A stretch of 64,000 nt of DNA, from contig OY763926.1 in NCBI GenBank assembly GCA_963667715.1, forward strand, positions 213,486-277,485, in the 5' to 3' direction. The position numbers and the translations under genes are program-made. Each line of letters opens with the position of its first letter. Position 1 is the stretch's first letter. This DNA is from Sedimentisphaerales bacterium (lineage in GTDB: Bacteria; Planctomycetota; Phycisphaerae; Sedimentisphaerales; SM23-30). The notes under the pieces were generated by a model. That model worked only from the letters and a program-made list of their open reading frames with translations, made no database searches and was not told where the DNA came from. Shown here piece by piece: positions 4,547 through 61,593 of the stretch.

Positions 4547-5129
4547 GTTTGATGATGTTTTTTTATAGACGGGATAACTGCCCGGGTACGGGCTGGATTT
4601 TGGAGCCAGCTCCGATTTGTCGGAGACAGATTATGTTTGGTTTAAATATGTTTGGTAATGTTATACCTTCCTGGGCTTCGGGGGAGGAGAAGATTTTTTA
4701 TCCACAGATTTATTGTAATGGGTTCGCTGGGGCGAACAGGTGGTTGATTAATTGGCACAGATTTAAGAAGAATAATTTAGAAGAGGATTTCACGCAAAGA
4801 CGCGAGGTGCTTCGCACCCGCAAAGGAAGAAGAAGATTGCTAGGATGCGAGGATTATCAGGATAAGAAGAAGAGGAAGAGTTATTTCTCGCAGAGCTCGC
4901 GGAGGCGCAGAGGGAAGGAAATTTAATAATAAGAGTTTTAACGCGATGGTACTGAGAGTTGGTTGGCAGGTGTGGGTGTTAGTGAGTTTATGATTTGGTT
5001 GGAAAGTAAGGAAGAAGACTTAAGAATCCCGACGTGTATCGGGAAACTCTTGCGCGGGGAGATGGTTGGGCGAGGCTTATTAATCAAACTGAAGTTTGTA
5101 CTCTTAAAGCTTCGCGTTTTCTTTTTCCT
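4547..5129 (+). repeat. Mosaic intergenic cluster C1 (modules M1, a, f, g, h, j)
   Basis: Module a (CCACAGATT..GGTTCGC-n-GCGAAC..TTGATTAATT..CACAGATTTAAGAAG) is at 4701-4770. Module j (GGAAAGTAAGGAAGAAGACTTAAGAATCCCGACGTGTATCGGGAAACTCTTGCGCG) is at 5001-5056. Confidence 0.85.
4556..4699 (+). repeat. M1 element copy A (long form); candidate structured RNA/ssDNA element
   Basis: GGGATAAC, then hairpin GCCCGggtaCGGGC, then CTGGATTTT. Overlapping hairpins follow (GGAGCcaGCTCC and CTCCGAtttgTCGGAG), then CAGATT. The terminal hairpin is CCTTCC..GGGAGG followed by T6. Confidence 0.6.
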
Positions 5130-7655: not shown

Positions 7656-8579
7656 TTAGGTTTCCCATGAGAATAGTTTTCTTTTGGTTGGCGAAATTGT
7701 GTATTCGATGAATTGGTCTTCCAGTGTCATTTGTGCTTCTGAATGGAGCTGTGCATTGTTGGTTGAGCACCAGTTATTGAGCGTGTCGTCGGAAACAGAT
7801 ACCAGTACAGCCTCAATCATATTGCCGTCCTTTCGACAATGGAGCATGCCGGGAATTTGTACTTCGTTTTCTGGAGTCTGGTTGAATTTTAGGACGACTT
7901 TTCTTACAGCGTTGCGGAATTCTTCCATAGTGCAGCGGGCACGCAGCTGGCCGTTATCGAGAATGGCTATGTTGTCAGCTACGCGTTCGACGTCGCTGAG
8001 TATATGGCTGGAGAACAGGATAGTTCGTCCTTCACGCTGGATGAGTTTAATTATGCCCTCGAGGAACTGACGTCTGACAACTACATCGAGGCCGAGGGTA
8101 GGGTCGTCCATGATAAGTATTTCGGGGTCTGGCGCGAGTACCATAGCGAGAGAGACCTGGGCCCGCTGGCCGTTAGAAAGTTTTCTGATCTTTTTCTTTT
8201 TCGATAGTTCAAAGAACTCGATCATTTCTTCAAACAGGTTATTATCCCAGCGTTGTGGGTAGAATGCAGCCTGATATTTTCTGAGAGCTTCGATCGACAT
8301 GCTATCGAAAAGTTTGTGTCCTTCGTTAATGTAGCCGATACGTGCGATCAGGTCGGGGGTGAGGTTGTTGCTGTCTTGGCCGTCGATGTAACAGCGGCCG
8401 CTGGTTGGTTTAGCGAATCCGAGCAGCATACGAATGGTAGTGCTTTTGCCTGCACCGTTTCTGCCGAGCAAGCCGAAGATGCTGCCTTTTGGGATCTGTA
8501 AGTTCAGATGATCGACCACTGGGGTAGTGCCGTAATATTTGGTAAGGTTCTGTGTTTCGATTGCGTATTCGCTAGTCAT
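7656..8579 (-). CDS. ABC transporter ATP-binding protein (ABC-2/DrrA-like)
   Basis: Walker A GLLGRNGAGKST, signature LSNGQRAQVSLA, Walker B ILIMDDPTLGLD. The start is set at MTSEYAIE, giving an 8-nt overlap (ATGACTAG) with the gntR stop. Confidence 0.85.
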   Translation of the reverse strand: MTSEYAIETQNLTKYYGTTPVVDHLNLQIPKGSIFGLLGRNGAGKSTTIRMLLGFAKPTSGRCYIDGQDSNNLTPDLIARIGYINEGHKLFDSMSIEALRKYQAAFYPQRWDNNLFEEMIEFFELSKKKKIRKLSNGQRAQVSLAMVLAPDPEILIMDDPTLGLDVVVRRQFLEGIIKLIQREGRTILFSSHILSDVERVADNIAILDNGQLRARCTMEEFRNAVRKVVLKFNQTPENEVQIPGMLHCRKDGNMIEAVLVSVSDDTLNNWCSTNNAQLHSEAQMTLEDQFIEYTISPTKRKLFSWET

Positions 8580-8988
8580 TGCTATTGCCTTCCCTGTTCT
8601 GGCCATTTTTGAATTTAGTCAGCCTCTGTTCAAATAGTTCTGTTATTTGCTTATGACTTAATCCCAGGTTGACAGCCTGTGAGATGATATTATCGAGTCG
8701 CTCGTTTATAATGTTTATCTGCTGGATATCGCGTGAGCTGGAGGTTGGGTTATTTATATAAGTACCTGCCCCTTTGCGAGTTATGACCAGTTCTTTTTGT
8801 TCGAGAGTCGTATATGCTTTGGCAACAGTGTTTGGATTGACAACGAGCTCGGCAGCGAGCTGACGCACCGCTGGCAGCTTATCGCCGGGCTGGAGCTGGC
8901 CCATGGCAACCATCTGCTCTATCTGGTCGACTATTTGTTTGTAAACGGGCTCTTTACTACCCGATGAGATCTGTATCCAAATTGCCAT
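8572..8988 (-). CDS. GntR-family transcriptional regulator, short YtrA-like subtype
   Basis: 138 aa. Winged-helix block: PVYKQIVDQIEQMVAMGQLQPGDKLPAVRQLAAELVVNPNTVAKAYTTLEQKELVITRKGAGTY. Confidence 0.85.
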   Translation of the reverse strand: MAIWIQISSGSKEPVYKQIVDQIEQMVAMGQLQPGDKLPAVRQLAAELVVNPNTVAKAYTTLEQKELVITRKGAGTYINNPTSSSRDIQQINIINERLDNIISQAVNLGLSHKQITELFEQRLTKFKNGQNREGNSND

Positions 8989-9122: not shown

Positions 9123-9264
9123 ATTTTTTATAGACGTGATAACCGTCCGAGTACGGGCTGGATTTTGGAGCCAGCTCCGATTTGTCGGAGACAGATTATG
9201 TTTGGATTAAATATGTTTGGTAATGTTAAACCTTCCTGGGCTTCGGGGGAGGAGAAGATTTTTT
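9123..9264 (+). repeat. M1 element copy B (long form)
   Basis: Near-identical to copy A. Hairpin 1 is GTCCGagtaCGGGC, with a U.G wobble where copy A has C-G. Confidence 0.6.
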
Positions 9265-9587
9265 ATCCACGGATTTTTTTTAAGGGGTTCGCTACCGGGA
9301 ACTGGTGATTGATTAATTTTCACAGATTTAAGAGGGAGAGATTAAGAGGGAATTTTACCATGAAGTTCAGGGAGGTCATGAAGGGGGAAGAATTAATATA
9401 AGAGTTTAACGCAAGGGCGCGAAGGCGCAGAGAGATGGTTGGAGATGTAGGTTTTTATGGAGTTTGTGGGTTGGTTGGAGAGTAAGGAGGAAGGCTTGAG
9501 TATCCCGATTAAGGGGGCGTAGAAGAGAAAGTCATATTAGTGTGACTTTCTTGTCGGATAGTTTGTCATGTTATGAGATGTAATATT

Positions 9588-9620
9588 AAGAATCACAAGC
9601 GAGGACGCTTGTGCTACTTA
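9588..9620 (-). repeat. Class-1 REP S2
   Basis: AGAATCACAAGCgaggacGCTTGTGCTACTTA. The TAA stop of the 9618-10388 gene is the TAA of TAAGTAG. Confidence 0.75.
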
Positions 9621-10388
9621 GGGGATGGTTATTATGTCTTGTACTTTGTATTTTTTTAGTAGGTCGGTGATGGTGGTTGAAGTTTTTATTTTTTTTAGGC
9701 CGTCGTTGAATTTTTCGAGCTTGGAGTTTATGTCTTTAGCTTTTTTTGAGAATGCGATGAATAGCTCTTTATTGTCTAGTATTGGTTTGACGATCTCTAC
9801 TTTTTCCTTTGACGGGGCCATGACCTTGTCGTTTTCGATGCAGTAAAAAGCGACAAGCGGGTCGACGATAATGACGTGCGCTTTGCCGGCGAGTAGGTTC
9901 TGGATGTTTGACAGGTCGTCCTTGGCTTCGATCTTGGTGAGATAGTCGGCGTTGTCGATCTCCTTAGTGTTGATATAGCCGGCGACGACACCGATTTTGT
10001 ATGGTTTCAGCTCTTCGACTTTACCGGTATAGTTGAACTCGGTGGTCTTAAGCTTCATGAAGGTGAGTGGGCCGCAGATGATGGGGTCTGAGAAGATAAA
10101 CTCCGATTCGAGGTCTTTATTGTAATATTCGGGGTAATAAGCGTCTGCGTTACCGATCCGTGCGAGATCGACGCACTTTTCCCATGGCAGGAAGAAGACC
10201 TGGACGTCTGATTCGCCGGCGGCTTGATATGCGGCCTTGATGATCTCGGTAACGAACCCGTTTTCAGGGATGTTTTTGCCGACGTAAGGCTGCCAGTCGA
10301 GGGAGGTTAGCTTAATCTTTTCGGCTGAAGCGAATGTGGTTAATGTAAATATGGTCAGGAAAGTAGCGAATATTTTTGTCAGGTTCAT
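9618..10388 (-). CDS. Periplasmic substrate-binding protein, family 3 (PBPb-like)
   Basis: Signal peptide MNLTKIFATFLTIFTLTTFASA. LTSLDWQPYVG..GFVTEIIKAAYQAAG is typical of family-3 solute-binding proteins. Confidence 0.65.
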   Translation of the reverse strand: MNLTKIFATFLTIFTLTTFASAEKIKLTSLDWQPYVGKNIPENGFVTEIIKAAYQAAGESDVQVFFLPWEKCVDLARIGNADAYYPEYYNKDLESEFIFSDPIICGPLTFMKLKTTEFNYTGKVEELKPYKIGVVAGYINTKEIDNADYLTKIEAKDDLSNIQNLLAGKAHVIIVDPLVAFYCIENDKVMAPSKEKVEIVKPILDNKELFIAFSKKAKDINSKLEKFNDGLKKIKTSTTITDLLKKYKVQDIITIP

Positions 10389-11316
10389 AATTTTGGTCCG
10401 TAAAAGGTTAAAGGTAAAAAGTTAAAGGTTTTATGTTTACCTGTATTATGTATCGTGTGATATTTGGCGGGACTTATGGCGGTTGGTGGGAGATGGTTGA
10501 TTATGGGGCGGCTGGTTGTGGGTTGGAGTGAGTAGGGTTATGGGTAAGTGGTTTGTTGATGGGAGGTTATTGGGATTGATAAGGTGAGAGCGGTGTATGG
10601 TGGGGCGGGTGGGTTATCGGACGGATTAGGGTGGGAATAAATGATTGATATGGGTGGGTGAATGTGGATAATATGTATGATTGTAAAAGGTAAGAGTAGT
10701 TGTCCACAGATTTGTTGAAAGGGGTTTGCTGCCGCAAACGCTGATTGATTAATTTACGCGGATTTAAGAAGAGGAGTAATTAAGAAATATATTTACCATG
10801 AAGTTCATGGAGATCTTAGTGACGGTCGAGCCGCAACCAAAAGTTTTATGTAAGAAGAGAATTAAGAGTTTAACGCAAAGTCGCCAGGTCGCAAAGAGTT
10901 GGTTGGCGATTGGGGGGGGGGAGATGATGGCAGTATGAAGAGTTTTTTGGGGAACCACAGATGAACACGGATGAACACCGATAAGGGGAAGTTGGGGAGA
11001 TACAAGATACATAGCAGCCGTAAAGGGGGGAAGAAGGAAATGGCTAGGATGCGAGGGTTTTTAGGATAAGAAGATTAAGAGAAGAGTTGGTTCTCGCAGA
11101 GGCGTGAAGATTTGGTTGGAGATGTGGGCGTTGGGGAGTTTGTGGTTTTGTTGGAAAGTAAGGAAGAAGACTTAAGAATCCCGATGTGTAACGGGAAACT
11201 CTTGCGCGAAGGGTTGGTTGGGAAGCTGCTTAGGAGACGCAAGATTTTGCGTCTCTACGTGGGGGGATGGTTTTTTTTTGGAAGTAGATAAACGAGAATG
11301 AATAGAAGAAACGAAG
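10389..11316 (+). repeat. Mosaic intergenic cluster C3 (AAAGGTA repeats, G/T-rich tract, a, b, c, g, h-variant, j, class-2 REP)
   Basis: Module a is at 10703-10772 with a compensated stem, GTTTGC..GCAAAC. GGTTGG/GGGTGG-rich DNA spans ~10440-10700. Confidence 0.8.
11233..11258 (-). repeat. Class-2 REP R2-1
   Basis: GGAGACGCAAgattTTGCGTCTCTAC; the minus strand reads GTAG-AGACGCAA..TTGCGTCT. Confidence 0.7.
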
Positions 11317-12927: not shown

Positions 12928-13530
12928 ATGTAGGGGGGGGATTCACAGATTTTTTGAAAGGGGTTCGCTGGGGCGAACAGCTGATTGATTAATTAACGCG
13001 GATTTAAGAGGGAGAATAATTAAGAAATATCTTTACCATGAAGTTCATGGAGATCATGAAGAGGGAAGAATTAATATAAGAGTTTAACGCAAGGGTGCTA
13101 AGTCGCAAAGAGTTGGTGGGCGACTGGGGGGGAGTTTGAGATGGTGGCATTGAGAAGAGTTTTTGTGAACCACAGAGGACACAGAGAAATAAGAAGAAGA
13201 AGGGTTTCACGCAAAGGGGCAAGGTGGTTGGTGCCCGCAAAGGGAGAAGAAAGAAAATTGCTAGGATGCGAGGATTATTAGGATAAGAAGAAGAGGTATT
13301 TCTCGCAGAGCTCGCGGAGGCGCAGAGGGAAGAAAGTTTAATAATAAGAGTTTTAACGCGAAGAGATGGTTAGGGTGTATAGTGTTGGGGAGTATATTAT
13401 ATGGTTGGGAAGTAAGGGAGAAGACTAAAGAATCCCGATGTGTATCGGGAAACTCTTGCGCGGGGGGGGAGAAGGGAGACGCAAGATTTTGCGTCTCTAC
13501 GGATGGGGTGGTTGGTGGGGTTGTGAAGAT
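12928..13530 (+). repeat. Mosaic intergenic cluster C4 (a, b, c, d, e, f, g, h, j, class-2 REP); the most complete copy
   Basis: Module a is at 12942-13012, starting 15 nt after the nadB stop. All modules appear in the canonical order. Confidence 0.85.
13475..13500 (-). repeat. Class-2 REP R2-2
   Basis: GGAGACGCAAgattTTGCGTCTCTAC. Confidence 0.7.
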
Positions 13531-13569
13531 AAAAAAAAGGCTCGGTAGTTGGTGCTGCCGGGCCTTTTT
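13531..13569. terminator. Bidirectional intrinsic-terminator-like hairpin
   Basis: A8-GGCTCGG..CCGGGCC-T5, 23 nt downstream of the stop of the 13592-14524 gene. The stem has one mismatch/wobble. Confidence 0.5.
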
Positions 13570-14524: not shown

Positions 14525-14759
14525 GTTACACTCCCGGAAGTGAAGTAATATCAGTTATTTAACACACAAATAAGCTGTGGGCACACAATGTGGCCCATAA
14601 ATGATAATACTTCTGTAAATATTAGATTACCATAAAATCTGTTAGCACTTTTAGCTGGTCAATATGGCCGGAGCGGCTTGTAGATGAATATATTGAAAAA
14701 CCAAAAGAGCTACTGCGAAACAAAACAATGATATTTTAGCACTATCGGGGGGTGGGGGC

Positions 14760-15340
14760 AAATGTTTTTTGATCCACTGATTTTTTGAAAGGGGTTCGCT
14801 ACTGCGAACAGCTGATTGATTAATTAACGCGGATTTAAGAGAGAGGATAATTAAGAAATATATTTACCATGAAGTTCATGGAGATCATGAAGGGGGAAGA
14901 AAAATATAAGAGTTTAACGCAAGGGCGCTAAGTCGCAAAGAGTTGGTTGGCGATTAAGGGTTAGTTTGAGATGTTGGCAATAGGATTTTTTTGCAGGGAT
15001 TAGAGGATAGGAGGATGATTTTTTAGGATAAGAGTAAGGGAAGAGTTTTTACCATGAAGTTCATGTAGATCATGAAGGGGGAAGAAAAAATATAAGAGTA
15101 TAACGTGAATGGATGGTTGGCGGTGCGGGTAATTTGGTAGTTTATTATATGGTTGGGAAGTAAGGAAGAAGACTTGAGAATACCGATGTGTATCGGGAAA
15201 CTCTTGCGTGGAAGAGAAAGTCAGTATTAGTGTGACTTTCTTGTATTATAATTCTTCATATTATGCAATATTAAGAATCACAAGCCCCGATGTTCTTCGA
15301 GACTTGTGCTACTTAGGAGATGCAAGGTGTTGTGTCTCTA
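14760..15340 (+). repeat. Mosaic intergenic cluster C5 (a, b, c, d, g-variant, second b, j, GAAAGTCA hairpin, S3, degenerate class-2 REP)
   Basis: Module a is at 14773-14843. Module b (ACCATGAAGTTCATGGAGATCATGAAG) occurs twice. Confidence 0.85.
15274..15315 (-). repeat. Class-1 REP S3 (extended stem with nested mini-hairpin)
   Basis: AGAATCACAAGccCCGAtgttcTTCGagaCTTGTGCTACTTA, 25 nt 3' of the 15341-16609 stop. Confidence 0.7.
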
Positions 15341-16609
15341 TTAGGGGTTTGGTTGGCCTGGGTTTGGTGGGGTTGGTTGCCAGCTGTCTGGGTCTTTGCT
15401 GTAAAGGGCTTTTCCGGCCTGGTATATTCTGGAAAGCGAGTCTCCGTCGCCGTCGGCGGAGTCTGGCCATGGCGATTCGTCAGAATATTTGACTTCATCC
15501 TGAATGATATAATACCAGCCGTTCTGGTCGATCTCGAAATCTCCGGGCATGGCCAGGGAGATTGTCTCGCCGCTGTTATTAAGTTTGCCGCTGTCCCATT
15601 CGATAATGATCGCAGATGCGGGGGTATTGGTATAACGTTCGTTGAAGGCGTCGAGGTCTTTGACGAGGACGACATAGCCGTAGGCTGGAACGAAAACGGT
15701 GCCAGGGATAGTGACTTCGATTGCGTCGCTGATAGTCCAGCCGGTAGTCTGAGTTTCGCTGGTGACATATAGCGGAAGAGTGGAAGCGGAGTTATTATAA
15801 AGTTCGATATAGTCGTAATCGTCATCGTCGTCTGAGATGTCGCCTTTTTCCGGGTCGAGAGCGTGGTACATAACTTCATTGATTACCAGCGGGCCAGTTT
15901 TGGCGGCGGCGTTTGCCCGGCCGGGAGTAGGTTGTAACATAGCGACGAAATCGAATTTATCCCGAGATGGTACATAAAAGCGTCCGAAGGATATGCCGGA
16001 ATCAGAACCGGAGAAGTTGACTTTCTCGGTGTATCCTGTAAGTACGTTGGCAGTTGCACTGGAGAGGTATACATCTTCGCCACGTTCGCTAAGAGCGAAA
16101 GGGGTAAGGCAGCCAGCGTCTTTAATATTACCGAAGTTTGTGGCTTCGTAGAATACTTTATAGCCGTGAGCTGGGATAATGGTGTTATTGGCGATTCGAT
16201 ATTTCATGAGGTCGGCGTCGGTGTCGTTGTTGTCGCTGAGGTACCAGCCGCCGATATTGACATTGTAGTCAGTAGGGTTATATAGTTCGATCCAGTCGGA
16301 AGCGATATCGTGAGAATGTGCTAGGACCTCGTTAATTTCGATTGGTACGCCGACGTCGAGCCAGTCTTCGCGTGCGAAATCAGCGAAATCTTCGATATTT
16401 ATGATGCCGTCGCCGGTGAGGTCGATGTCGTCGCAAGCTGGTGTGGAGCAGTTGGTTAGCCAGTATTGTCCGATAACCTGGAGGTCGTTTATGTCAACGA
16501 TGCAATCGCCGTTGAGGTCGCGTTTTTTTGGGCAGTCGGAAGCTATAAGTGATGATGAATACGATACTAACAGCGATAACAATATTAATAGGGATATTCT
16601 GTTTCCCAT
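15341..16609 (-). CDS. Secreted protein: dockerin-like repeats plus two lamin-tail (LTD) domains
   Basis: Signal peptide present. Dockerin-like segments: DLNGDCIVDINDLQVIGQYWL and DLTGDGIINIEDFADFA. Two LTD signatures: INEVLAHS..DWIELYNPT..IGGWYLSD and INEVMYHA..DYIELYNNS..GWTISD. Confidence 0.75.
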   Translation of the reverse strand: MGNRISLLILLSLLVSYSSSLIASDCPKKRDLNGDCIVDINDLQVIGQYWLTNCSTPACDDIDLTGDGIINIEDFADFAREDWLDVGVPIEINEVLAHSHDIASDWIELYNPTDYNVNIGGWYLSDNNDTDADLMKYRIANNTIIPAHGYKVFYEATNFGNIKDAGCLTPFALSERGEDVYLSSATANVLTGYTEKVNFSGSDSGISFGRFYVPSRDKFDFVAMLQPTPGRANAAAKTGPLVINEVMYHALDPEKGDISDDDDDYDYIELYNNSASTLPLYVTSETQTTGWTISDAIEVTIPGTVFVPAYGYVVLVKDLDAFNERYTNTPASAIIIEWDSGKLNNSGETISLAMPGDFEIDQNGWYYIIQDEVKYSDESPWPDSADGDGDSLSRIYQAGKALYSKDPDSWQPTPPNPGQPNP

Positions 16610-16854
16610 ATACTCTCTTCTCCAGTTGCCGGTTAGGTGTTGACCTTGATGGTTAGTATCAAGGGAATTTGCGGGTGTATTTATATATTATACAATATAT
16701 GTGAGTTGTGGCAAAATATCGGGATGAAGATTTTTTTTATCCACGGATTTTTTTAGATGGGTTCGCTACCGCAAACTGCTGATTGATTAATTGGCACAGA
16801 TTTAAGAAGGGGAATGATTTAGAAGAGGATTAAGATTTTAACACAAAGTGCAAA

Positions 16855-16970
16855 GATTTTTTTGGATGGGATAACCGACCGCCTGTGGCGGTCTGGATTT
16901 TAGCGGCAGATTGAGTGGGGCGGAATATAGATTGTTGAATGTTTACATTCTCCGGGGGCGGGGGAGAAAG
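16855..16970 (+). repeat. M1 element copy C (short form)
   Basis: GGGATAACC, then GACCGCCtgtGGCGGTC, then CTGGATTTT-AGCGG-CAGATTG. Terminal hairpin TTCTCC..GGAGAA. Confidence 0.6.
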
Positions 16971-17368
16971 TAGAAGAGGAGAATTATGAGTTTAAGGAAA
17001 GGGCGCGAAGACGCAAAGATTTGGTTGGCAATTTTGGGGTGGTTGGAGATGGTGGCATTGAGAAGATTTTTTACCACAGAGGGCACAGAGAACACAGAGA
17101 AGAAGAATTTTTTGCAGGGATAGAGGATAAGAAGATGATAATCAGGATAGCGAATTAAGGTTATTGACCTGCAAAGTTCGTGTGCTTTTAACGAGAATGT
17201 AAAGTGCGATTATTTAGCAAGTTAGATCGAATGTGAAAAATAATGACACATAAAAAACAAGAAAATGATGGATAGTAGTGCAGAGGGAAGAAAATATAAT
17301 AATAAAATGTCAGGTTGTTGTGTAACTTATATACCAGGTTATTTGAGTTGGTTGGGGAAGTTATATTG

Positions 17369-17410
17369 AGAATCACAAGTCCCGATGTGCTTCGGGACTT
17401 GTGATTCTTA
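17369..17410 (-). repeat. Class-1 REP S4 (long stem, nested mini-hairpin, no GTAG)
   Basis: AGAATCACAAGTCCCGAtgtgcTTCGGGACTTGTGATTCT. Confidence 0.65.
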
Positions 17411-17436
17411 GGAGACGCAATATTTTGCGTCTCTAC
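17411..17436 (-). repeat. Class-2 REP R2-3
   Basis: GGAGACGCAAtattTTGCGTCTCTAC. Confidence 0.7.
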
Positions 17437-17450
17437 GGGGGGGGGAGATA

Positions 17451-19575: not shown

Positions 19576-19918
19576 ATTATCCTCCCAGAATAAATGGCTC
19601 AATCAATATTACAGGCTGTAATTGAGCTGGTTAAAAAATAACAGGTATGGCTTATTATTTAAAAATGTTATGGTGTTTAACTTTGTGGGGGTTAAAAGGT
19701 ATGGTTCCCAATTATTATAATTTCACTCAGGCTGGACAAAAGATGACCAGCATTATTTCATAATAGGAAATTGGAGAATGTGATGCAAGAATAAAAAAGT
19801 TTTTTTATCCACAGCTAATAGGTGTTCGCTGGGGCGAACTGCTGATTGATTAATTTGCACAGATTTAAGAAGAATAATTAAGATTTTAACGCAGAGAAGT
19901 GAAGACGCAAAGTGCAAA

Positions 19919-20034
19919 GATTTTTTTGGATGGGATAACCGACCGCCTGTGGCGGTCTGGATTTTAGCGGCAGATTGAGTGGGGCGGAATATAGATTGTT
20001 GAATGTTTACATTCTCCGGGGGCGGGGGAGAAAG
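19919..20034 (+). repeat. M1 element copy C' (short form)
   Basis: Identical by eye to copy C. Confidence 0.6.
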
Positions 20035-20676
20035 TAGAAGAGGAGAATTATGAGTTTAAGGAAAGGGCGCGAAGACGCAAAGAGTTGGTTGGCAATTTTG
20101 GGGTGGTTGGAGATGGTGGCATTGAGAAGATTTTTTACCACAGAGGGCACAGAGAACACAGAGAAGAAGAATTTTTTGCAGGGATAGAGGATAAGAAGAT
20201 GATAATCAGGATAGCGAATTAAGGTTATTAACCTGCAAAGTTCGTGTGCTTTTAACGAGGATGTAACGTGCGATTATTTAGCAAGTTACATTGAATGTGA
20301 AAAATAATGACACATATAAAACAAGAAGTTGATGAATAGTAGTACAGAGAAGAAGAGGATTTCACGCAAAGGCGCAAGGTGCTTCGCACCCGCAAAGGAA
20401 GAAGAATAGTTGCTAGGATGCGAGGATTTTTAGGATAAGAAGATGATGATTAGGATAGTGAATTAAGGTTATTGACCTGCAAAGTTAGTGTGCTTTTAAC
20501 GAGGATGTAACGTGCGATTATTTAGCAAGTTAGATTGAATGTGAAAAATAATGACACATAAAAAACAAGAAAATGATGGATAGTAGTGCAGAGGGAAGAA
20601 AATATAATAATAAAATGTCAGGTTGTAGTGTAACTTATATACCAGGTTATTTGAGATGGTTGGGGAAGTTATATTG

Positions 20677-20718
20677 AGAATCACAAGTCCCGATGTGCTT
20701 CGGGACTTGTGCTACTTA
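20677..20718 (-). repeat. Class-1 REP S5
   Basis: AGAATCACAAGTCCCGAtgtgcTTCGGGACTTGTGCTACTTA. Confidence 0.7.
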
Positions 20719-20744
20719 GGAGACGCAATATTTTGCGTCTCTAC
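20719..20744 (-). repeat. Class-2 REP R2-4
   Basis: GGAGACGCAAtattTTGCGTCTCTAC. Confidence 0.7.
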
Positions 20745-20780
20745 TGGGGTGGCTAGTGTGGGTAAAGTGGAAAAAAAGTT

Positions 20781-27509: not shown

Positions 27510-28100
27510 TTTAGGAATTAGTCCCGATGTGCATCGGGATAGAAATTAGGGGGAGTTTGGGGTATTGTTTTTTAGGGTTGCCGGGGGCGGTGCGCAACTA
27601 AAATGTAAGAATATCAATCCACAGATTTATTTTAATGGGTTCGCTACCGCGAGCTGCTGATTGATTAATTTACACAGATTAAAGAAGAATAATTAAGAAG
27701 AGAATTAAGAGTTTTTTTACCATGAAGTTCAGGGAGATCATAGGGCGTTCAAGCCGCAACCAAAAGTAATAAGAAACAAGAAATAAGCTCCTGTTTCTCG
27801 CTATGCTCGAAGCTAATTTATTTAAGAGTTAGTATGTTTGCGGTATGGTTATTGAGCTCTATTGCTAAATGAGTTACAGATGTTACAAGAAATAATCGAA
27901 CATAAAAAACAATGTTTTGGGAGATAGTAGTATGAAGGGGGGGGAAGAGTTTAACGCAAAGGCGCGAAGTCGCAAAGAGTTGGTTGGCGACTGGGGAGGG
28001 GGTTGGGATTTGTGATATGATTGGAAAGTAAGGAAGAAGACTGAAGAATCCCGATGTACATCGGGAAAGGCCGGAACTCTTGCGCGGGGAGTTGGTTGGC
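27510..28100 (+). repeat. Mosaic intergenic cluster C8 (mini-hairpin 27522-27539, a, b, i-variant, c, j)
   Basis: Module a is at 27618-27687. Module j is ...GGAAAGTAAGGAAGAAGACTGAAGAATCCCGATGTACATCGGGAAAGG. Confidence 0.8.
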
Positions 28101-28145
28101 GATTTTGGGCGTTTATTGCAACTTGAAAAGTGCGAAAGTAAACTC

Positions 28146-32014: not shown

Positions 32015-32147
32015 CGTTTTTAGAGGGGCTAACCGACCGCCTGGGGCGGACTGGATCTTGGAGCCAGCTCCGGTTTATCGGAGACAGATTGTAGTAAGAG
32101 GCGGTAAAGAGTATAGATGTTTCATTCCCGTATTGCGTGGGAATACG
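32015..32147 (+). repeat. M1 element copy D (long form, stand-alone, ~150 nt upstream of the capD-like gene)
   Basis: GGGGCTAACC, then GACCGCCtggGGCGGAC, then CTGGATCTT, then GGAGCcaGCTCC/CTCCGGtttaTCGGAG, then CAGATTG. The terminal hairpin ATTCCCgtattgcgtGGGAAT has a different stem sequence from copies A and C. Confidence 0.55.
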
Positions 32148-32300: not shown

Positions 32301-34319
32301 ATGACGATAAATACCACTATGGAAAGAGATTTGACCGATAGTCGCTACGGTGCTGGCACAATGAGCACGAAAAGTCTTTTGATCTGGAAGGGCAGGATCG
32401 TATTTGCTCATCTGGTATTCTTCTGGCTTAGCTTGTTTATGAGCTTTGTTGTTCTGAATCAGATGCAGATCAACGAATGGTTCGGTCCGGTATTCTGGAA
32501 TGTGTTCTTAGCTATAACAGCAATCAAGCTGGTAGTTTATGGTCTATTCAGGCAATATCAGGGCTGGTGGCGATATGTAAGTGTATCTGACCTGTTCAGT
32601 ATAATCAAAGCAACTCATGCAAGTCTGTTGATAATCATCGTGGCGTATTATGTGTGTCTGTACTATTGTCCATCGATTTTGGGCGAATATGAGCCGATTA
32701 AGGGTACAATAATCCCGATTTTGCAGAGTGATAAGCTATCGCCGTCAACCTTTGTGGCGGATTGGGTGGCGACAATCTGTACGGTATGTGGTTCGAGATT
32801 GTTGATAAGATTGTATTTTGAAGAGAGCCAGCAGGTAGTACCAGGTAGGCTAACTCGTATTTTGATAGTAGGTGCCGGTAATGCTGGCGAGACATTGCTG
32901 CGAGAGATACGCAGGATGTCGGTATTGAAGTATGAGGTTGTTGGTTTTGTAGATGATAACCCGCGCAAGCGTGGCATGCGAATTCATGGTGTAGAGGTGC
33001 TTGGTAATACAGGCGAGATCAAGAAGATCGCTAAGGAAAAGGCGATCGATGAGCTGGTTATCGCTATGCCGTCGGCAAATCGTAAAGAGCTTCGTCATGT
33101 TATTTCGCAATGTGAAGGATCTAACCTAAAGTTCAGTACGGTACCAGATCTGGTTTCTATAGCTGCTGGTAAGGTTGCCGTCTCGCAGATGAGGGATGTT
33201 GATATTAACGACCTGCTTGGTCGTGACCCGATAACGCTGGACATAGAACAGATAAGCAGTTTTCTGAATAATAAGGTGGTTATGGTGACTGGTGCGGGCG
33301 GTTCGATCGGATCGGAGATGTGCCGTCAGATCTGTCAGTTCGGTCCAAAGCGTTTGCTGCTGGTCGAGCAGGCAGAGAACCCGCTGTTCCATATAGAAAG
33401 AGAGCTACAGGCGAACTATCCATCGGTTTCATTGAGGCCGATAATATGTGATATATCAGATGGCGTACGAGTAGATCGGGTATTTTCAGAGAATAAGCCA
33501 GAGGTTGTAATTCATGCGGCGGCACATAAGCATGTGCCGTTGATGGAGGCTAACCCGGGCGAGGCGTTTAAGAATAATGTTTCCGGTACCCGTAATGTTG
33601 CTTATGCATCAGATAAATACGGAGCGAAGAATTTTGTGATGATCTCTACGGATAAGGCGGTGAACCCGACGAGTATAATGGGCTCGAGTAAGCGTTTTGC
33701 CGAGATGGTTATCCAGGGTTTGAACGTTCGTAGTAAGACCGACTTTATAACAGTTCGTTTTGGTAATGTGCTGGGTTCCAATGGTTCGGTAGTGCCGATC
33801 TTTACTAAGCAGATCATGGCTGGCGGGCCGGTAACGGTAACGCACCCAGATATGCAGCGATATTTTATGACGATCCCGGAAGCGTCGCAGCTGGTACTTC
33901 AGGCGGCGACAATGGGTAAGGGCGGCGAGGTCTTTTTACTAGATATGGGAGAGCCGGTTAAGATCGCAGATCTGGCGCGTGAGCTTATCACACTGAGCGG
34001 ATATCGGCCAGATGAAGATATCGAGATAAAGTTTACCGGAATGCGTCCGGGTGAGAAGCTATTTGAAGAGCTTAGTATTGCAGGTGAGGATATGAAGCCG
34101 ACACCGCATCCGAAGATCGCTGTCTGGCAGAATATTCCGGCAGATGAGACAGAGCTGCATAGTGCAATTGATGAAATGCTGAGAGTTGCTGATACGGCGA
34201 GCTATGATGAGATCGTTTCGATAATAAAGCGGATCATCCCGGAATATGTTGGCGATGTAGATAGTAAAATGCTGCACGACGAGCATGTGAAGAACATGGG
34301 TCGGGTCGGGTGTAACTGA
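32301..34319 (+). CDS. Membrane-anchored nucleotide-sugar 4,6-dehydratase/epimerase (CapD/PglF/WbpM family)
   Basis: N-terminal TM segments, Rossmann motif VMVTGAGGSIGSE and catalytic region ISTDKAVNPTSIMGSSKR. Confidence 0.9.
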   Translation: MTINTTMERDLTDSRYGAGTMSTKSLLIWKGRIVFAHLVFFWLSLFMSFVVLNQMQINEWFGPVFWNVFLAITAIKLVVYGLFRQYQGWWRYVSVSDLFSIIKATHASLLIIIVAYYVCLYYCPSILGEYEPIKGTIIPILQSDKLSPSTFVADWVATICTVCGSRLLIRLYFEESQQVVPGRLTRILIVGAGNAGETLLREIRRMSVLKYEVVGFVDDNPRKRGMRIHGVEVLGNTGEIKKIAKEKAIDELVIAMPSANRKELRHVISQCEGSNLKFSTVPDLVSIAAGKVAVSQMRDVDINDLLGRDPITLDIEQISSFLNNKVVMVTGAGGSIGSEMCRQICQFGPKRLLLVEQAENPLFHIERELQANYPSVSLRPIICDISDGVRVDRVFSENKPEVVIHAAAHKHVPLMEANPGEAFKNNVSGTRNVAYASDKYGAKNFVMISTDKAVNPTSIMGSSKRFAEMVIQGLNVRSKTDFITVRFGNVLGSNGSVVPIFTKQIMAGGPVTVTHPDMQRYFMTIPEASQLVLQAATMGKGGEVFLLDMGEPVKIADLARELITLSGYRPDEDIEIKFTGMRPGEKLFEELSIAGEDMKPTPHPKIAVWQNIPADETELHSAIDEMLRVADTASYDEIVSIIKRIIPEYVGDVDSKMLHDEHVKNMGRVGCN

Positions 34320-34691
34320 TATTATTTATCCGTAGATTATTTTTGAGGTGTTTGCTGGGGCGAACGGCTTATTGATTAATTTGCACAGATTTAAGAATGA
34401 AATTATAGATATGAATGACCCTGGTGTGTTTTTGCATCAGGGTTATTTTTTTTTGGGGAAAATAGAATTAAGAGGAAGATTTAACGCAAGGTCGCTAAGA
34501 CGCAAAGATTTGGTTGGCGGTATTGGGGATTTGTGAGTTTGTGACTTTGGTTGGGGAGTAAGGAAGAAGACTAAAGAATCCCGATGTGCATCGGGAAATG
34601 GCCGGAACTCTTGCGTGAAGAGATGGATGGCGGGATGGGGGATTAGGGAGTTTGCTGGGATTAGTAGAGACGCAAAATCTTGCGTCTCTAC
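34320..34691 (+). repeat. Mosaic intergenic cluster C9 (a, c-variant, j, class-2 REP)
   Basis: Module a is at 34329-34397 with stem GTTTGC..GCGAAC (wobble). Module j contains TCCCGATGTGCATCGGGA. Confidence 0.8.
34664..34691. repeat. Class-2 REP R2-6 (GTAG on both strands)
   Basis: GTAGAGACGCAAaatcTTGCGTCTCTAC. The TAG stop of the 34688-37417 gene is the TAG of the minus-strand GTAG. Confidence 0.75.
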
Positions 34692-39016: not shown

Positions 39017-39904
39017 TTAGCTGACAACTGCTTTGTATATTTCTTCAAGTGCGAGCGGTTTAACTTCCGCCTGACAGTTTATTTCAATGATACGCTTTTC
39101 GATCTCCATCGGCGGGCAGTTGCGTACAATGAGGCTTGCTCTGGAGGAGCTTTGCTGGCTGCTGACGATGTCATCGAAGGGGAGTTTTTCGGGTAGGGTA
39201 CCGCTACCGGCAGATATAGTAACGCGGCAGAACTCTTCGCGCAGTTCGTCGAACCCGCAATCGCGGAGCAGGCCGTTAGTGCCCATGATGAGAACGTGGT
39301 CGATGACTTTTTCAACATCGCTAAGTATATGCGAGGAGATAATAATCGTTCTGTTTTCGTCCTGAATAAGTTCGAGCAGGAAATCGAGGAACTTACTTCT
39401 TGCTATTGGGTCGAGAGCAGATGCCGGTTCATCGAGAATGAGCAGCTCCGGACCGAAGGCGGTAGCGATAAGGATAGAGATGATCTGTCGCTGGCCGGGC
39501 GATAGGCTGCCGACGCGTGATTTGAGCGATATGTTGTAATCTTCAATAAAGCGGTTTTGCAGTTCCATGTTCCAGTTGTCGTAATAAGTTTGTACGTATT
39601 CGAGTAGCTGTTTGACGGTCATCCAGTCGATAAGTTCGCCTTCCTGATGAACGTAACCGATACGACCGAGTTCAGCAGCAGATAGTTTATCGGAGCTGAC
39701 GCCGAAGGTTCTGACACGCCCGAGCTCAGGCAGATACAGTCCGATGATATGTCTGAGCAGCGTACTTTTACCGACGCCATTACTGCCGAGTAAGCCGATG
39801 ATCCTGCCCCTTTTTATTTCGAGGTCGAGATCGTAAAGTACAACATGTTTGCCGAAGCGTTTGCATACTTTTTCCATACTCACAATTGATTCATTATTAT
39901 TCAT
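39017..39904 (-). CDS. ABC transporter ATP-binding protein (ABC-2/DrrA-like), paralog of 7656-8579
   Basis: Walker A GLLGSNGVGKST, signature LSPGQRQIISI, Walker B LLILDEPASALDP. An 8-nt overlap (ATGAATAA) with the gntR stop. Confidence 0.85.
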   Translation of the reverse strand: MNNNESIVSMEKVCKRFGKHVVLYDLDLEIKRGRIIGLLGSNGVGKSTLLRHIIGLYLPELGRVRTFGVSSDKLSAAELGRIGYVHQEGELIDWMTVKQLLEYVQTYYDNWNMELQNRFIEDYNISLKSRVGSLSPGQRQIISILIATAFGPELLILDEPASALDPIARSKFLDFLLELIQDENRTIIISSHILSDVEKVIDHVLIMGTNGLLRDCGFDELREEFCRVTISAGSGTLPEKLPFDDIVSSQQSSSRASLIVRNCPPMEIEKRIIEINCQAEVKPLALEEIYKAVVS

Positions 39905-40316
39905 TGTTTCCCTCTGATTCTGTTTTATCAGGATTAGAATTATCCATCTGTGTTAAACAATCCCTGAAGATCGCAATAGCATCATTTTTATTTATACCCA
40001 TTTGTGCTGCCATGACTGCAGCTTTGTTTGCAATAGAAATGAACAGTTCATTTTTTTTCTTATCAGACTCAGCAGGTAAAGCCTCGGCAACGAAAAGTCC
40101 TATGCCGCGACGGCGTAACAGCAGTCCTTCGCTTTCTAGCTGGGAGTATGCTTTACTAACGGTCATGGGGTTAACTTTTAGCCTGCCGGCGAGATCTCGT
40201 ACAGTTTCTAGCTGCTGGCCGGGCGGCAGCTCGCCGGAGAGTACCTGCTGGGCGACCTGATCGATGATCTGACGATAGATCGGTAAGCCGCTGTGATAGT
40301 CAATGTCTAGTATCAT
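39897..40316 (-). CDS. GntR-family transcriptional regulator, YtrA-like, paralog of 8572-8988
   Basis: LPIYRQIIDQVAQQVLSGELPPGQQLETVRDLAGRLKVNPMTVSKAYSQLESEGLLLRRRGIGLFV. Confidence 0.85.
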   Translation of the reverse strand: MILDIDYHSGLPIYRQIIDQVAQQVLSGELPPGQQLETVRDLAGRLKVNPMTVSKAYSQLESEGLLLRRRGIGLFVAEALPAESDKKKNELFISIANKAAVMAAQMGINKNDAIAIFRDCLTQMDNSNPDKTESEGNNE

Positions 40317-41290: not shown

Positions 41291-43603
41291 ATGAAAAAAT
41301 TTGTATTAGGTTTGTCGCTGCTTTCACTGGCATTTTGTTCAGTAACAGCAAACGCTCAGACCAAAGCGTACTGGCGTTTTGAAAATGGAGTTGTAGGAAC
41401 AGACGTTCAGCATTTAACAGGTGAAGGCGGCATAGCTAACGCCAGTGCTGATATACCAGACCTATCAGGTAATGGTTATGGACTATCAGCGTGGAATACT
41501 GGTGGCGACCCAGGTTACAGATGGGTTGATCGTACAGCTGGTGATATTACACTGACCAATCAGGCCAGCACAATGTCAGTACAGCACGCAGGTAACAATC
41601 CAGGATTCTATACCTTCTCAGAAGAACTACGCAGCTGGAGTCCACAGGCATTTACTATCGAGCTGACATTTAAGCCACGTAATGGTGACCACAGAACATA
41701 TGTTGGTCGTGACAGCTTTGGTACTAATGAGGATACAGAAAACCTTGCAGCACTGTATGTTAAGACCAATCCTGATCAGGATCTGGCATTTTCATACTGT
41801 GACGTAACAGGTGTATGGCATACATGTGTAACTGATCCAGGTGCGGTTCAGGAATACATTCAGGCTAGTGATGAGTTTGGTGATACAATTCCCTGGTACA
41901 CAATGGTTGCAGAAACTGATGGTACTACAATGAGAATTTATCTGCTTAACCATGATGAGCCAGAACTAGGCTATCAGCTTCTGAAGGAAGTAGCAAACTC
42001 GGAAACAGAAAACCCTGCACTGACAACCGGTGCTGGTGGTGCTGGCGACTGGGTTGCAGGTAACTTCACAGTAGGTCGCGGTATGTGGGCTGGCGGTCAT
42101 GGCGATCGTGCTTACGGTCTGATCGACGAAGTACGTCTTTCAGAAGGTTGTCTTGATGTAGATGACTTCCTGTACAGCGGTTACCAGCCAATGGCAACTA
42201 ACCTGACTAGTACTCAGGTTGCAAATACAGCTGATAAGATTGTAGAAACAACATTGAGCTGGAATACAGCGGTAAATGTTAATGGTACAGTAGAATCAAG
42301 CATCGTTGACCAGGTTATGTTCATGAGCACACCAGAAGATCCTAACTTCACATATGTTAAGTCATTCGGTGACCCAGGTGCAACACTGGAAAACACATAT
42401 GCAATGGATCTTGACTTTGACTCAGTATACAAGTGGAATATTGCAACAGTACTAGCTGGCGAAGTTCCATCATTGACACTGAACCAGAGCACAATTTCTG
42501 ATCTTGATCCTAATAATGTTCTTAGTATCGAAACTAATGTTATCGAAACTCTTCCTTCAATGCCAATTATCCTGACTAACCCAGTTGGAACACTGGTAAA
42601 TGAAGGTGAAGCACACAGCATGGAAGTAACAGTTGATTCAATTACAACACCAGTATTTACATGGTATAAGTCTGATGATAATGTAGTATCAGAAGATGAC
42701 GTTGTAGTTGGTACAAATGACGGTGTGCTTGCTCTTGCTGATATCACAGTTGATGATATGGCTTACTACTACTGTGGTGTAGTAAATGACAGTGATGTAG
42801 CGGTATACTCTAATGTTGCACTGCTTGAAGTAGCGAGCATGGTAGCAGAGTTTACTTTTGATAATACACTGATTGACACAGTAAATGGCGTTATTGGTGT
42901 AGGTTTTGTTGGTGAAAACACAGATGTAGAAATGACCTATGAAGAAGGTATGGTAGGCGATGCAATCAGCTTCAATGGTGTTGATGAGCACGTTGAGATC
43001 CCATGCTTTGTACGTAACAGCTACACAATCGAGATGTGGGTTAAGACAACTCAGGCAGCTGGCGGCGGCGACTGGTGGTATGGAGCTGGTCTTGTCGATG
43101 GTGAAATGCCAGGTGGTGTTGCTGATTACGGTATTGTTCTTAGCGATAACAAATTTGCGTACGGTTCAGGTCCAAGCGGAACAACCATCAGATCAGCTAA
43201 GGTTGTAAATGATGGCGACTGGCACTACTGTGTTGCTACTCGTGATGTTGTAAACGGTGATATGGCTATCTATGTTGACGGTCAGTTGGAAGCATCAGCA
43301 ACTAATATAGATGCTGGCGTAACTCAGGCAGTAACTGATATGCTTTCTATCGGTAAGATAAGAAGCGATAGCCGTTTCTATAACGGTCTGATCGATGAAG
43401 TTAAGATCTATAACTATGCGATCGGTGAGTTTGATGTTGCTGCTAAGTATCATGCAATAGATCCAGAAGCTAAGATTTGTATCCAGAGCGTTAAGCCTGA
43501 TACCAAGTTCGACATGAACAATGACTGTATCGTTGATGTTCAGGACCTTGCTAAGATCGCAGCTAACTGGCTTGATTGTGCAATCTACCCAACTTGTTTC
43601 TAA
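41291..43603 (+). CDS. Secreted LamG / Ig-like / LamG protein with C-terminal dockerin-like module
   Basis: Signal peptide MKKFVLGLSLLSLAFCSVTANA. N-terminal LamG-type start (AYWRFENG). Ig-like segment (YYCGVVNDSDVAVYSNVALLEV). The second LamG domain contains YTIEMWVKT, DGDWHYCVATRD, IYVDGQLE and LIDEVKIYNYA. The tail is DMNNDCIVDVQDLAKIAANWLDC. Confidence 0.8.
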   Translation: MKKFVLGLSLLSLAFCSVTANAQTKAYWRFENGVVGTDVQHLTGEGGIANASADIPDLSGNGYGLSAWNTGGDPGYRWVDRTAGDITLTNQASTMSVQHAGNNPGFYTFSEELRSWSPQAFTIELTFKPRNGDHRTYVGRDSFGTNEDTENLAALYVKTNPDQDLAFSYCDVTGVWHTCVTDPGAVQEYIQASDEFGDTIPWYTMVAETDGTTMRIYLLNHDEPELGYQLLKEVANSETENPALTTGAGGAGDWVAGNFTVGRGMWAGGHGDRAYGLIDEVRLSEGCLDVDDFLYSGYQPMATNLTSTQVANTADKIVETTLSWNTAVNVNGTVESSIVDQVMFMSTPEDPNFTYVKSFGDPGATLENTYAMDLDFDSVYKWNIATVLAGEVPSLTLNQSTISDLDPNNVLSIETNVIETLPSMPIILTNPVGTLVNEGEAHSMEVTVDSITTPVFTWYKSDDNVVSEDDVVVGTNDGVLALADITVDDMAYYYCGVVNDSDVAVYSNVALLEVASMVAEFTFDNTLIDTVNGVIGVGFVGENTDVEMTYEEGMVGDAISFNGVDEHVEIPCFVRNSYTIEMWVKTTQAAGGGDWWYGAGLVDGEMPGGVADYGIVLSDNKFAYGSGPSGTTIRSAKVVNDGDWHYCVATRDVVNGDMAIYVDGQLEASATNIDAGVTQAVTDMLSIGKIRSDSRFYNGLIDEVKIYNYAIGEFDVAAKYHAIDPEAKICIQSVKPDTKFDMNNDCIVDVQDLAKIAANWLDCAIYPTCF

Positions 43604-43635
43604 TATATAGTTATTAGATACAACTAAGTAAATCA

Positions 43636-43680: not shown

Positions 43681-44060
43681 GGGGATGGGGGGTTGAGTGA
43701 TGGGGAGGTGGATTGGACGATTGGGGGTTGGTTTGAGATGATAAAATTAAGATTTTTTACCACAGAGGGCACTGAGAAGAAGAGGATTTCACGCAAAGGC
43801 GCAAGGTGCTTCGCACCCGCAAAGGAAGAAGAATAGTGGCTAGGATGCGAGGATTAATAGGATAAGAGGAAGAGGAGATTGTTTCTTACAGAGACGTGAA
43901 GAGTTGGTTGGCAAAGTTATACCAAGAATCACAAGTCCCGATGTACTTCGGGACTTGTGCTACCTAAAAGGAAGAAGACTAAAGAACCGGCTGAAGGCCG
44001 GAACTCTTGCGCGGGGGGGAGTTGGTGGAGAATGTGGGGTTGGTTTATGAGAAAAGTAAA
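43681..44060 (+). repeat. Mosaic intergenic cluster C10 (d, e, f, g, h-variant, S7, j-variant; lacks module a)
   Basis: TTTGAGATGATAAAATT.., ACCACAGAGGGCACTGAGAAG, CACGCAAAGGCGCAAGGTGCTTCGCACCCGCAAAGG and GCTAGGATGCGAGGATTAATAGGATAAGAGG. Confidence 0.8.
43925..43966 (-). repeat. Class-1 REP S7
   Basis: AGAATCACAAGTCCCGAtgtacTTCGGGACTTGTGCTACCTA. Confidence 0.7.
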
Positions 44061-47006: not shown

Positions 47007-47394
47007 GGCGAAAGAACCTTTCCGTAATATTGCCAACGATCCGCCAGGAAAAACCAAACCATTATGGCGGAATAATTGCAAATAAGAGTAATCGGAAGCG
47101 AGCTTCCTTAATCCTATCCTTGACAACCAGCTAAATTTTAATACAAGAAAGTATAAGTGTCCAATAAAATATTGGCGTGCTTTGAATATGTTCGGATAGT
47201 AGAGTGCAAAAACTTTAATTAATCCACATGTTATCCACATGTTATTTAAATATGTGTATTAATTAAGGTTATGGGTGGGGGTATAGCCGAGAATTAATTA
47301 ATTTTTCTCGGTGTTGTATGTAAGTTGTTAAGAAGTTTTCCACATGTTATTAACTTTTAAACAGAGATTCCTGTGAGATTGTGTTAGGAATGGT

Positions 47395-47785
47395 GAGTTT
47401 TCCACAGATTTAGTCCAAGGTGTTCGCTACCGCGAACTGCTGATTGATTAATTTACACAGATTAGAGTAGGAAGAGAAATAGGAGTTTAACGCAAGGACG
47501 CGAAGACGCAAAGGGTTGGTTGGGAAATAAGGAAGAAGGCTGGAGAATCCCGATAAATCGGGAACTCTTGCGTGGGGGGAGTGGGTTGGCGATTTGGGTT
47601 GGTTTGGATGAGATGCGTGGCTTTTTATTTGTATTCGCTTTGCTCATGGCTTGGAAATCAAACTAAAGGGTGTGTTGCCTAAAAGAGTAAGTCAGAATAT
47701 TGTGTAACTTATACACCAGATTCATTGAGATGGTTGGCAAAGTTATACCAAGAATCACAAGCGAGGACGCTTGTGCTACTCATGG
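47395..47785 (+). repeat. Mosaic intergenic cluster C11 (a, c, j, S8)
   Basis: Module a is at 47401-47470. Module j has loop variant TCCCGATAAATCGGGA. Confidence 0.8.
47751..47782 (-). repeat. Class-1 REP S8
   Basis: AGAATCACAAGCgaggacGCTTGTGCTACTCA; the stem and loop are identical to S2. Confidence 0.7.
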
Positions 47786-49165: not shown

Positions 49166-49326
49166 TTTTTTATTATCCACAGATTTTTTTTAAGGGGTTC
49201 GCTACCGCGAACGGCTGATTGATTAATTTACACAGATTAAGAAGAAGAGTAATTAAGAGTTATTTTTGCTATGAAGGTTATGGAGAGGGAAGGATGTGTG
49301 AAAAAGTGCGAAGTGCGAAGTGCGAA

Positions 49327-49443
49327 GATTTTTGGGACGGGATAACCGACCGAGTACGGTCTGGATCTTTACGGCAGATTGAAGGTGGGGTAATGGCGGT
49401 TGATGGTGGTTTTCTTTCTCGGATTGCGGGGGAGGGGGAGATT
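49327..49443 (+). repeat. M1 element copy E (short form)
   Basis: GGGATAACC, then GACCGagtaCGGTC, then CTGGATCTTT-ACGG-CAGATTG, then a terminal G-rich hairpin. Confidence 0.55.
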
Positions 49444-49731
49444 TAATGTAAGGGCGCGAAGTTACAAAGAGTTGGTTGGAGGTGTAGGATTTTATGGAGT
49501 TTTTGGTTTGGTTGGTAAATAGGGAAGAAGAAATTGCTAGGATGCTAGGATTTTTAGGATAAGAAAATGAAGAGAAGATTGTTTCTCGCAGAGGCGCGAA
49601 GGTGCAGAGGCTTGGTTGGCGACTGAGGGTGGGTTGGTATTTGAGATATGGTTAGGAAGTAAGGAAGAAGGCTAAAGAACCCGATTAATCGGGAACTCTT
49701 GCGCGGGGGAGTTGGTTGGCGAAGTTGTATT

Positions 49732-61471: not shown

Positions 61472-61593
61472 AAGAGGAGAGTTTTTTAAAAGACAGGATA
61501 ACAGGATTTTTCGACAGATTGTGGGGGTGTTGGGATTGATTGGGGGGGGCAGGGTGTTGCTTTTTGGGGGAGGGATAGAATGAGTATTATAAT

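Follow-up and report, generated by a model that had tools for sequence, protein, structure and literature searches.

A short intergenic repeat with a covarying hairpin in a Sedimentisphaerales bacterium and its probable descent from one arm of a miniature mobile element

The RAYT-associated REP and REPIN sequences of Escherichia coli and Pseudomonas are extragenic imperfect palindromes with conserved flanking bases and a stem that stays paired; they are found in intergenic DNA at high copy number, as inverted doublets in some genomes and as singlets in others, and REP sequences act as 3'-end stabilisers. The BIMEs of E. coli and the NIMEs of Neisseria are intergenic arrays of short hairpin-bearing modules, with the REPs of a BIME alternating in orientation. 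Correia elements, the MITEs of Neisseria, are small inverted-repeat elements inserted between genes, the ends of which can form structures in transcripts, with effects on their termination or processing. Insertion sequences of the ISAs1 family have ends that begin CAGGG and are flanked by 8-10-bp direct repeats, and we know of no covarying subterminal hairpin described for ISAs1 ends. Here, we examine a repeat designated M1 in a 64,000-nucleotide stretch of a Sedimentisphaerales chromosome (the window, meaning this stretch at its full length) that shares features with each of these systems. The M1 unit resembles a REP in being an imperfect palindrome with conserved flanking bases that is present in many intergenic copies, and depending on the genome it is found as inverted doublets or as singlets. 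Unlike REPINs, the spacing of its doublets is larger, one genome shows duplications of the type left by DDE transposases, and the window copies all share one orientation. It is an optional module of intergenic arrays, as in BIMEs and NIMEs, but the modules of the window all lie in one orientation over 64 kb, on the G-rich strand. Like Correia elements it is small and lies between genes, but there is no sequence similarity, and whereas Correia elements keep both inverted repeats, the M1 copies of the window are single arms. The closest likeness to an ISAs1-family MITE is seen not in the window but in a related genome, as described below.

The window is ordinary chromosome, carrying hsdR, nadB, ilvBN, rny, ymdB, cdaA and ABC transporter genes, with 16 genes on the + strand, 20 on the - strand and approximately 27% of the sequence intergenic. 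The initial annotation had listed six copies of M1, all on the + strand, and a profile search with nhmmer recovers exactly these six (E = 5e-34 to 4e-47), which we refer to as copy A (4556..4699), copy B (9123..9264), copy C (16855..16970), copy D (19919..20034), copy E (32015..32147) and copy F (49327..49443). Running a covariance model over the window with filters off added a seventh, degenerate copy, G (61481..61535, +), and no unit on the - strand even at E<=10. M1 is a small, non-coding family with seven members, 55-145 nt in length. The core pattern TAACYGNCCGN{3,9}CGGNCTGGATYTT matches the window 6 times where 0 matches are expected (none in 100 shuffles), and the six-copy alignment over 115-145 nt bears out the proposed scaffold of GGGATAAC(C), hairpin 1, CTGGAT(T/C)TT, a variable middle and CAGATTG. 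Copies A, B and E are of a long form, with about 25 nt of additional sequence (GGAGCCAGCTCCGATTTGTCGGAGA, at 4602..4626 in copy A) that is absent from the short form (for example copies C and F) and from every relative; as had been described, the short form has AGCGG or ACGG in its place.

M1 stands before the module that we call a in copies A and B, between modules a and b in copies C, D and F, and alone in copy E, which lies upstream of a capD-like gene and had been labelled copy D in the initial annotation. Copies A and B had both been placed just after hsdR, which is true of copy A only; copy A begins 10 nt past the hsdR stop codon and is directly followed by module a, and copy G likewise begins 10 nt after a + strand stop codon. 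Copies A and B have a 235-nt block of M1 plus module a in common (88% identity), and a block of 300 nt is 99% identical between copies C and D. Because these composite blocks are shared, the six copies represent only about four independent lineages and are not six independent witnesses. Across species, the conserved part of M1 is limited to approximately 45 nt, consisting of the T-run, RGAC, RGGATAACCG, hairpin 1 and CTGGATYTT. Three candidate identities for this unit were rejected. For a sigma-70 promoter starting from its TTGACA, the -10 position falls within the variable stem; the likeness of GTTATCCTGTC to a DnaA box or a MOBP nick site extends to 6/9 positions only, with the key base differing in the window copies; and the R''/R' complementarity of an integron attC site is absent, the genes between the arrays being syntenic housekeeping genes.

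Hairpin 1 is located at 4580..4593 in copy A (GCCCG-GGTA-CGGGC), 9145-9158 in copy B (with one T.G pair), 16877-16893 in copy C (a 7-bp stem), 19941-19957 in copy D, 32035-32051 in copy E and 49348-49361 in copy F, all on the + strand. The stem variants reported previously, GCCCG/CGGGC, GTCCG/CGGGC and GACCG(CC)/(GG)CGGTC, are present, with the exception that copy E carries an A.A mismatch (GACCGCC/GGCGGAC). The proposal that hairpin 1 undergoes compensatory change is well supported by an alignment of 20 units from three Sedimentisphaerales genomes, 14 of these units coming from two metagenome-assembled genomes (MAGs). The hairpin is paired in 99% of cells, compared with 15-52% when the 3' partner is slid, and its covariation score was reached by 0/500 shuffles. 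Two base pairs use three to four Watson-Crick types: pair 25-40 occurs as C-G, A-U, U-A and G-C, plus one U.G, and pair 28-38 as C-G, G-C, U-A and A-U. The stem can be summarized as GNCNG/CNGNC with the G-C-G positions fixed, and a second allele with a 7-bp stem, GNCCGCC/GGCGGNC, is found both in the window and in the related genome OY759675. In the same alignment 22 columns are invariant, distributed over the T-run, RGAC, RGGATAACCG, stem, loop, stem and CTGGATYT, and the sequences flanking the hairpin, GGATAACCG and CTGGAT, do not vary. Hairpin 1 is a selected fold. That it covaries while its flanks are invariant indicates a fold of a single strand that would be recognised by some protein. 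At the two variable pairs just 1/38 cells is G.U, a low proportion if the helix were one of RNA, and copy G has lost exactly the hairpin (GACAGGATAAC|AGGATTTTTCGACAGATTG), an outcome to be expected of replication slippage over a hairpin in DNA.

The remainder of the proposed RNA fared less well. M1 had been presented as a 115-145-nt RNA with three covarying hairpins, but only hairpin 1 covaries. RNAalifold applied to nine full-length homologues keeps hairpin 1 and an invariant outer helix only, and full-length M1 folds no better than its shuffles (z -0.1 to -1.9). The stems of the terminal hairpin were said to be unrelated among copies; once aligned they have a conserved TTCYC...GGGGA core in common, the covariation term is unfavourable and 0 pairs have changed in both partners. 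Two mutually exclusive hairpins can be drawn, as described, within the segment of approximately 25 nt specific to copies A, B and E, but in no relative; the G.T pair of CTCCGG/TCGGAG in copy E is real. The hairpin and T6 that were thought to end copies A and B do not form a unit: the T6 lies 6 nt beyond the stem and opens module a (AAGATTTTTTATCCACAG), and since module a occurs 11 times in the window, mostly without M1, the T6 is not an M1 terminator. Inspection of the sequences around the M1 copies revealed no conserved promoter or terminator, and no conserved upstream motif beyond the T-run, ahead of which the sequences differ among A/B, C/D/F and E. A search of the whole window against Rfam, which had been suggested, gave 0 family matches at gathering score, and two M1-containing spacers searched at E<=10 gave noise only.

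The initial annotation also argued that wobble pairs would be tolerated only if the + strand were the folded strand. When the majority base per column of the other repeat modules is taken as ancestral, + strand changes among repeat copies are A>G in 74 cases versus T>C in 19, and changes to C are almost absent. A bias of this kind makes A-U into G.U whatever the function, so the wobble pairs cannot identify the folded strand. Among repeat copies, the strand asymmetry is thus driven by an excess of A>G over T>C and not by the classical C>T. The + strand has a GC skew of +0.1 to +0.46 per 2 kb, which is positive in genes of both orientations, and the skew is 0.4-0.6 in the spacers. Third codon positions have a skew of +0.40 to +0.49 in the window genes and of -0.33 to +0.06 in the orthologues of relatives. 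Several oligomers are also strongly polar between the + and - strands, including GGTTGG (84:3), TTGGTTGG (24:0), GCTGGCG (32:0) and GCTGGTG (25:3), the last two of which we take to resemble the E. coli Chi site GCTGGTGG.

In a scan of representative genomes, true relatives of M1 were found only in Sedimentisphaerales MAGs (Planctomycetota). Loci carrying the unit come from OY759675.1 (L001, L005 and L011) and JAFGDI01 (L006 and L010), and in both genomes the units are arranged as inverted pairs 150-430 bp apart. Three elements of 253-272 bp in OY759675 can be aligned end to end, each with two M1-like arms that point inward. Their tips read CAGGGCTAACGCATGAAA, which is of ISAs1 type, starting CAGGGCTAACGCA... 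/ CAGGGCTAA.GCA, and they are bordered by 10-bp target duplications (CAATAATCAA, TCATAATCAT and GTATCCAGGC/ATATCCCGGC). For ISArsp11, an insertion sequence of the ISAs1 family, the published inverted repeat is CAGGGCTAATGCAAAGTCG and the direct repeat is 10 bp long (PMC6305408). Because both tips and duplications match those of ISArsp11, the OY759675 element is an ISAs1-type MITE. A profile of this MITE aligns to M1 of the window over positions 20-107 or 154-245, that is, over all but the 18-bp tip. A match to the end of an insertion sequence had been named as something that would count against a new RNA family, and the data come close to this: the arm is homologous to a MITE with IS-type tips, but the tip itself is absent from the window.

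At the junctions of the window copies there is no target duplication, no inverted partner, no terminal repeat and no CAGGG end. Alignment of the adjoining sequences to ISAs1-like tips scores no better than shuffles (p >= 0.1), and neither module b nor the sequence after copy E, each considered as a degenerate tip, aligns better than shuffles. The open reading frames of the window encode no transposase. The link of M1 to a MITE therefore rests on homology with other genomes. The 18-bp tip is missing from the JAFGDI01 loci as well, neither the window nor the loci showed a RAYT or Y1 transposase gene, and no autonomous parent of the MITE was found in the window or in those loci, which for OY759675 are of only 8 kb. 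In JAFGDI01, locus L006 contains two copies of a composite element of approximately 430 bp (1660-2092 and 2533-2952), each made of a single + unit, a stretch rich in G and T, and a tandem of two - units, both of which have a TAGTATAAT-like box in front of them. Further afield, a metagenome scan with a relaxed pattern of the unit returned 53 loci, none of which extends past the pattern, indicating chance matches; scans of viral contigs for the unit and for module a gave 0 matches; and plasmid BLAST of a whole array gave a single 52-nt chance match.

Presence or absence of M1 can be followed at copy E. Orthologues of the capD-like gene downstream of it share 77-87% amino-acid identity, and M1 is absent from the orthologous upstream spacers of four relatives (L065 and L066 at 83%, L067 at 79% and L068 at 87%). 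These spacers are also approximately 150 nt shorter than that of the window. Copy E is a lineage-specific insertion. The contig of the relative with 87% identity ends, right after capD, in ...GGTTGTAAGGAAG (L068, 2600-2658), which is like the start of module d; this is probably an assembly break in a related repeat, and that relative may carry such modules too.

Aside from copy E, which occupies a 14th spacer alone, 13 spacers of the window carry arrays of modules in the recurring order a-[M1]-b-[f]-[c]-d-e. These are located at 4562-5091, 9127-9624, 10660-11275, 12941-13539, 14754-15370, 16721-17444, 19767-20770, 27607-28108, 34309-34639, 43705-44038, 47372-47780, 49159-49781 and 53271-53897. 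Every module of every array is on the + strand, irrespective of how the neighbouring genes are oriented, as are all seven copies of M1, so that M1 and all 13 arrays lie on the G-rich strand. Given that genes are divided 16 to 20 between the strands while all modules are +, the polarity of M1 and of the arrays goes with the chromosome strand instead of with transcription. In at least one case the array precedes the promoter-like site that belongs to the downstream gene. The arrays are absent from the orthologous spacers of relatives; the spacer between ymdB and the next gene, for example, is 64 nt in L065 versus 570 nt in the window. Module profiles have no convincing match in any locus of a relative, the sole match being a 21-nt fragment of module d in L065 (E = 0.003). 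The arrays are more unusual than M1 itself.

Several other features of the window deserve mention. Module a starts with TTTTTTATCCACAG, which in several copies (4698, 19805, 49173 and others, +) contains the perfect DnaA-box consensus TTATCCACA, and the window has 5 perfect DnaA boxes where 0.76 are expected. The hairpins of modules d and e (TCCCGAT..ATCGGGA and CACAAGTCCCGA..TCGGGACTTGTG) have T-rich tails on the - strand and, at 13433-13450, 15279-15308, 9594-9613, 17366-17411 and 27522-27539, are positioned just downstream of - strand genes, for which they may serve as terminators. In contrast to hairpin 1, the mismatches in their variants are uncompensated. Shortly before hsdR, an unannotated ORF of 205 aa (714-1331) is flanked by two tandem arrays with units of 232-234 nt (1-698 and 1336-2159, with 3.0 and 3.5 copies and 93-94% matches). 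These units are in part self-complementary, and one reading frame contains a QKAFSGEL-like motif, as found in the conserved regions of HsdS; the region could be a variable specificity-subunit locus. Two paralogous proteins with Laminin_G_3 and Ig domains are encoded on opposite strands (42673-43616, +, and 49846-50818, -) with approximately 61% DNA identity, and a pair of GntR and ABC-ATPase genes occurs twice (7656-8988 and 39017-40316).

On balance, we consider it somewhat probable that M1 is a non-coding repeat derived from a mobile element, each copy being one arm, left on its own, of a miniature element with hairpins that is native to Sedimentisphaerales. M1 is a repeat family with a covarying hairpin, its homologue forms the arms of a MITE that in one relative has tips and target duplications, copy E marks a lineage-specific insertion, and other copies have spread block-wise. 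As is expected of a MITE, the family is small, non-coding, multicopy and polymorphic for presence or absence, as seen for copy E in four relatives. We infer that the hairpin serves as a module for recognition and that the copies in the window are not RNA genes but inert relics. The functional core would be the unit of approximately 45 nt, comprising the T-run, RGAC, RGGATAACCG, the stem GNCNG (or GNCCGCC), a short loop, the complementary stem and CTGGATYTT. It would fold as a single strand and be read in cis by the propagating machinery, since copying appears to be confined to copies that have kept the stem intact. In the relatives, two such arms face each other in inverted orientation, and with ISAs1-type tips and 10-bp duplications they make a classical cut-and-paste MITE in one genome. 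The arms in the window would have lost partner and tips and would no longer be mobile alone; they now form an optional module of mosaic, + strand-only arrays and are copied block-wise with neighbouring modules. Two points sit uneasily with descent from a MITE arm. A DDE transposase acting on double-stranded DNA has no obvious need of a hairpin, and the unit of JAFGDI01 occurs without ISAs1-type tips, so it may be an independent REP-like unit that was captured by a MITE. As to where the hairpin would act, the scarcity of G.T pairs, the strand lock and the fact that copy G has cleanly lost the hairpin point to DNA, in transposition or replication, while a terminator-like tail and a possible outer helix, both of which also count against a mobile-element relic, are compatible with RNA.

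A possible but unlikely alternative is that hairpin 1 with UGGAUYUU is a cis-acting RNA hairpin, facing inward at each end of the element and serving as a weak terminator, an insulator or a 3'-end stabiliser in read-through transcripts, in which case the host would keep the hairpin for its effect on the transcript. In copies A, B, C and D a permissive scan picks out hairpin 1 together with TGGATTTT as resembling a terminator, but GGA interrupts the U-tract of the tail, UGGAUUUU, and the stem has only 5-7 bp. Folding of the unit alone predicts an extended helix, GGAU..AUCUU, with G.U pairs around hairpin 1, yet the z-scores are only -0.9 to -3.0. The inward direction of both MITE arms, and the start of copies A and G 10 nt after + strand stop codons, would suit such a role. 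However, copies B, C and D are upstream of or antisense to - strand genes, where there is nothing for a + strand terminator to act on, and a plain terminator leaves the invariant flanks and the fixed G-C-G positions of the stem unexplained.

Rather improbable, in our estimation, is that M1 is a REP- or REPIN-like element of single-stranded DNA, in which an HUH-type enzyme (RAYT or IS200/IS605-like) recognises the unit on the lagging-strand template. The inverted doublets of the relatives would then be REPINs and the window copies, which form none, decayed singlets, and coupling to replication would explain the + orientation. A covarying stem between invariant flanks is what such an element should look like, as are stems almost without G.T pairs and the clean loss of the hairpin in one copy. 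The doublets are present in two relatives, and in JAFGDI01 they lack both IS tips and target duplications. All 7 copies of M1 and the 13 arrays are on the G-rich strand regardless of gene direction, but this orientation lock is common to many unrelated modules and may say nothing about M1. Against a REPIN origin are the lack of any RAYT or Y1 transposase gene in the loci covered, the 10-bp target duplications and CAGGG tips of OY759675, which are a DDE and not an HUH signature, and the spacing of the doublets, which at 150-250 nt exceeds that of typical REPINs.

The least supported reading, and a very improbable one, is that of the initial annotation, a family of independently transcribed structured small RNAs of about 115-145 nt from the + strand: hairpin 1 is a real structure, all copies are on one strand and the family would be new to Rfam, but there is no conserved promoter, no terminator of its own, no covariation in hairpins 2 and 3 and no significant folding energy, only the unit of approximately 45 nt is conserved across species, where its inverted pairs place it on both strands, relatives have no syntenic counterpart of copy E, and the A>G bias accounts for the wobble evidence. 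As a full-length candidate RNA, M1 is weak and does not belong on an RNA-discovery list in that form. The case illustrates that G.U "evidence" for the folded strand can come from strand-biased mutation alone.

Returning to M1 as the arm of a miniature mobile element, what has been identified is a covarying hairpin unit of approximately 45 nt that is conserved across Sedimentisphaerales species and undescribed in Rfam. The genome that surrounds it is more unusual still, in that the intergenic part of the window (approximately 27%) consists mostly of collinear, one-strand arrays missing from relatives and the third-codon-position GC skew is above +0.4. A bolder and decidedly doubtful idea is that the core of M1, together with further hairpin modules such as a, b, d and e, makes up a system of elements that act as single-stranded DNA and insert or copy into one replication strand only. 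If this were true, one-strand insertion would build collinear, orientation-locked arrays, about one per 4.5 kb, in a strongly A>G-skewed planctomycete, and we know of no replication-coupled intergenic repeat system of such a kind described for any bacterium. The unit itself offers a way into the mobile DNA of a phylum in which repeats have received little study.
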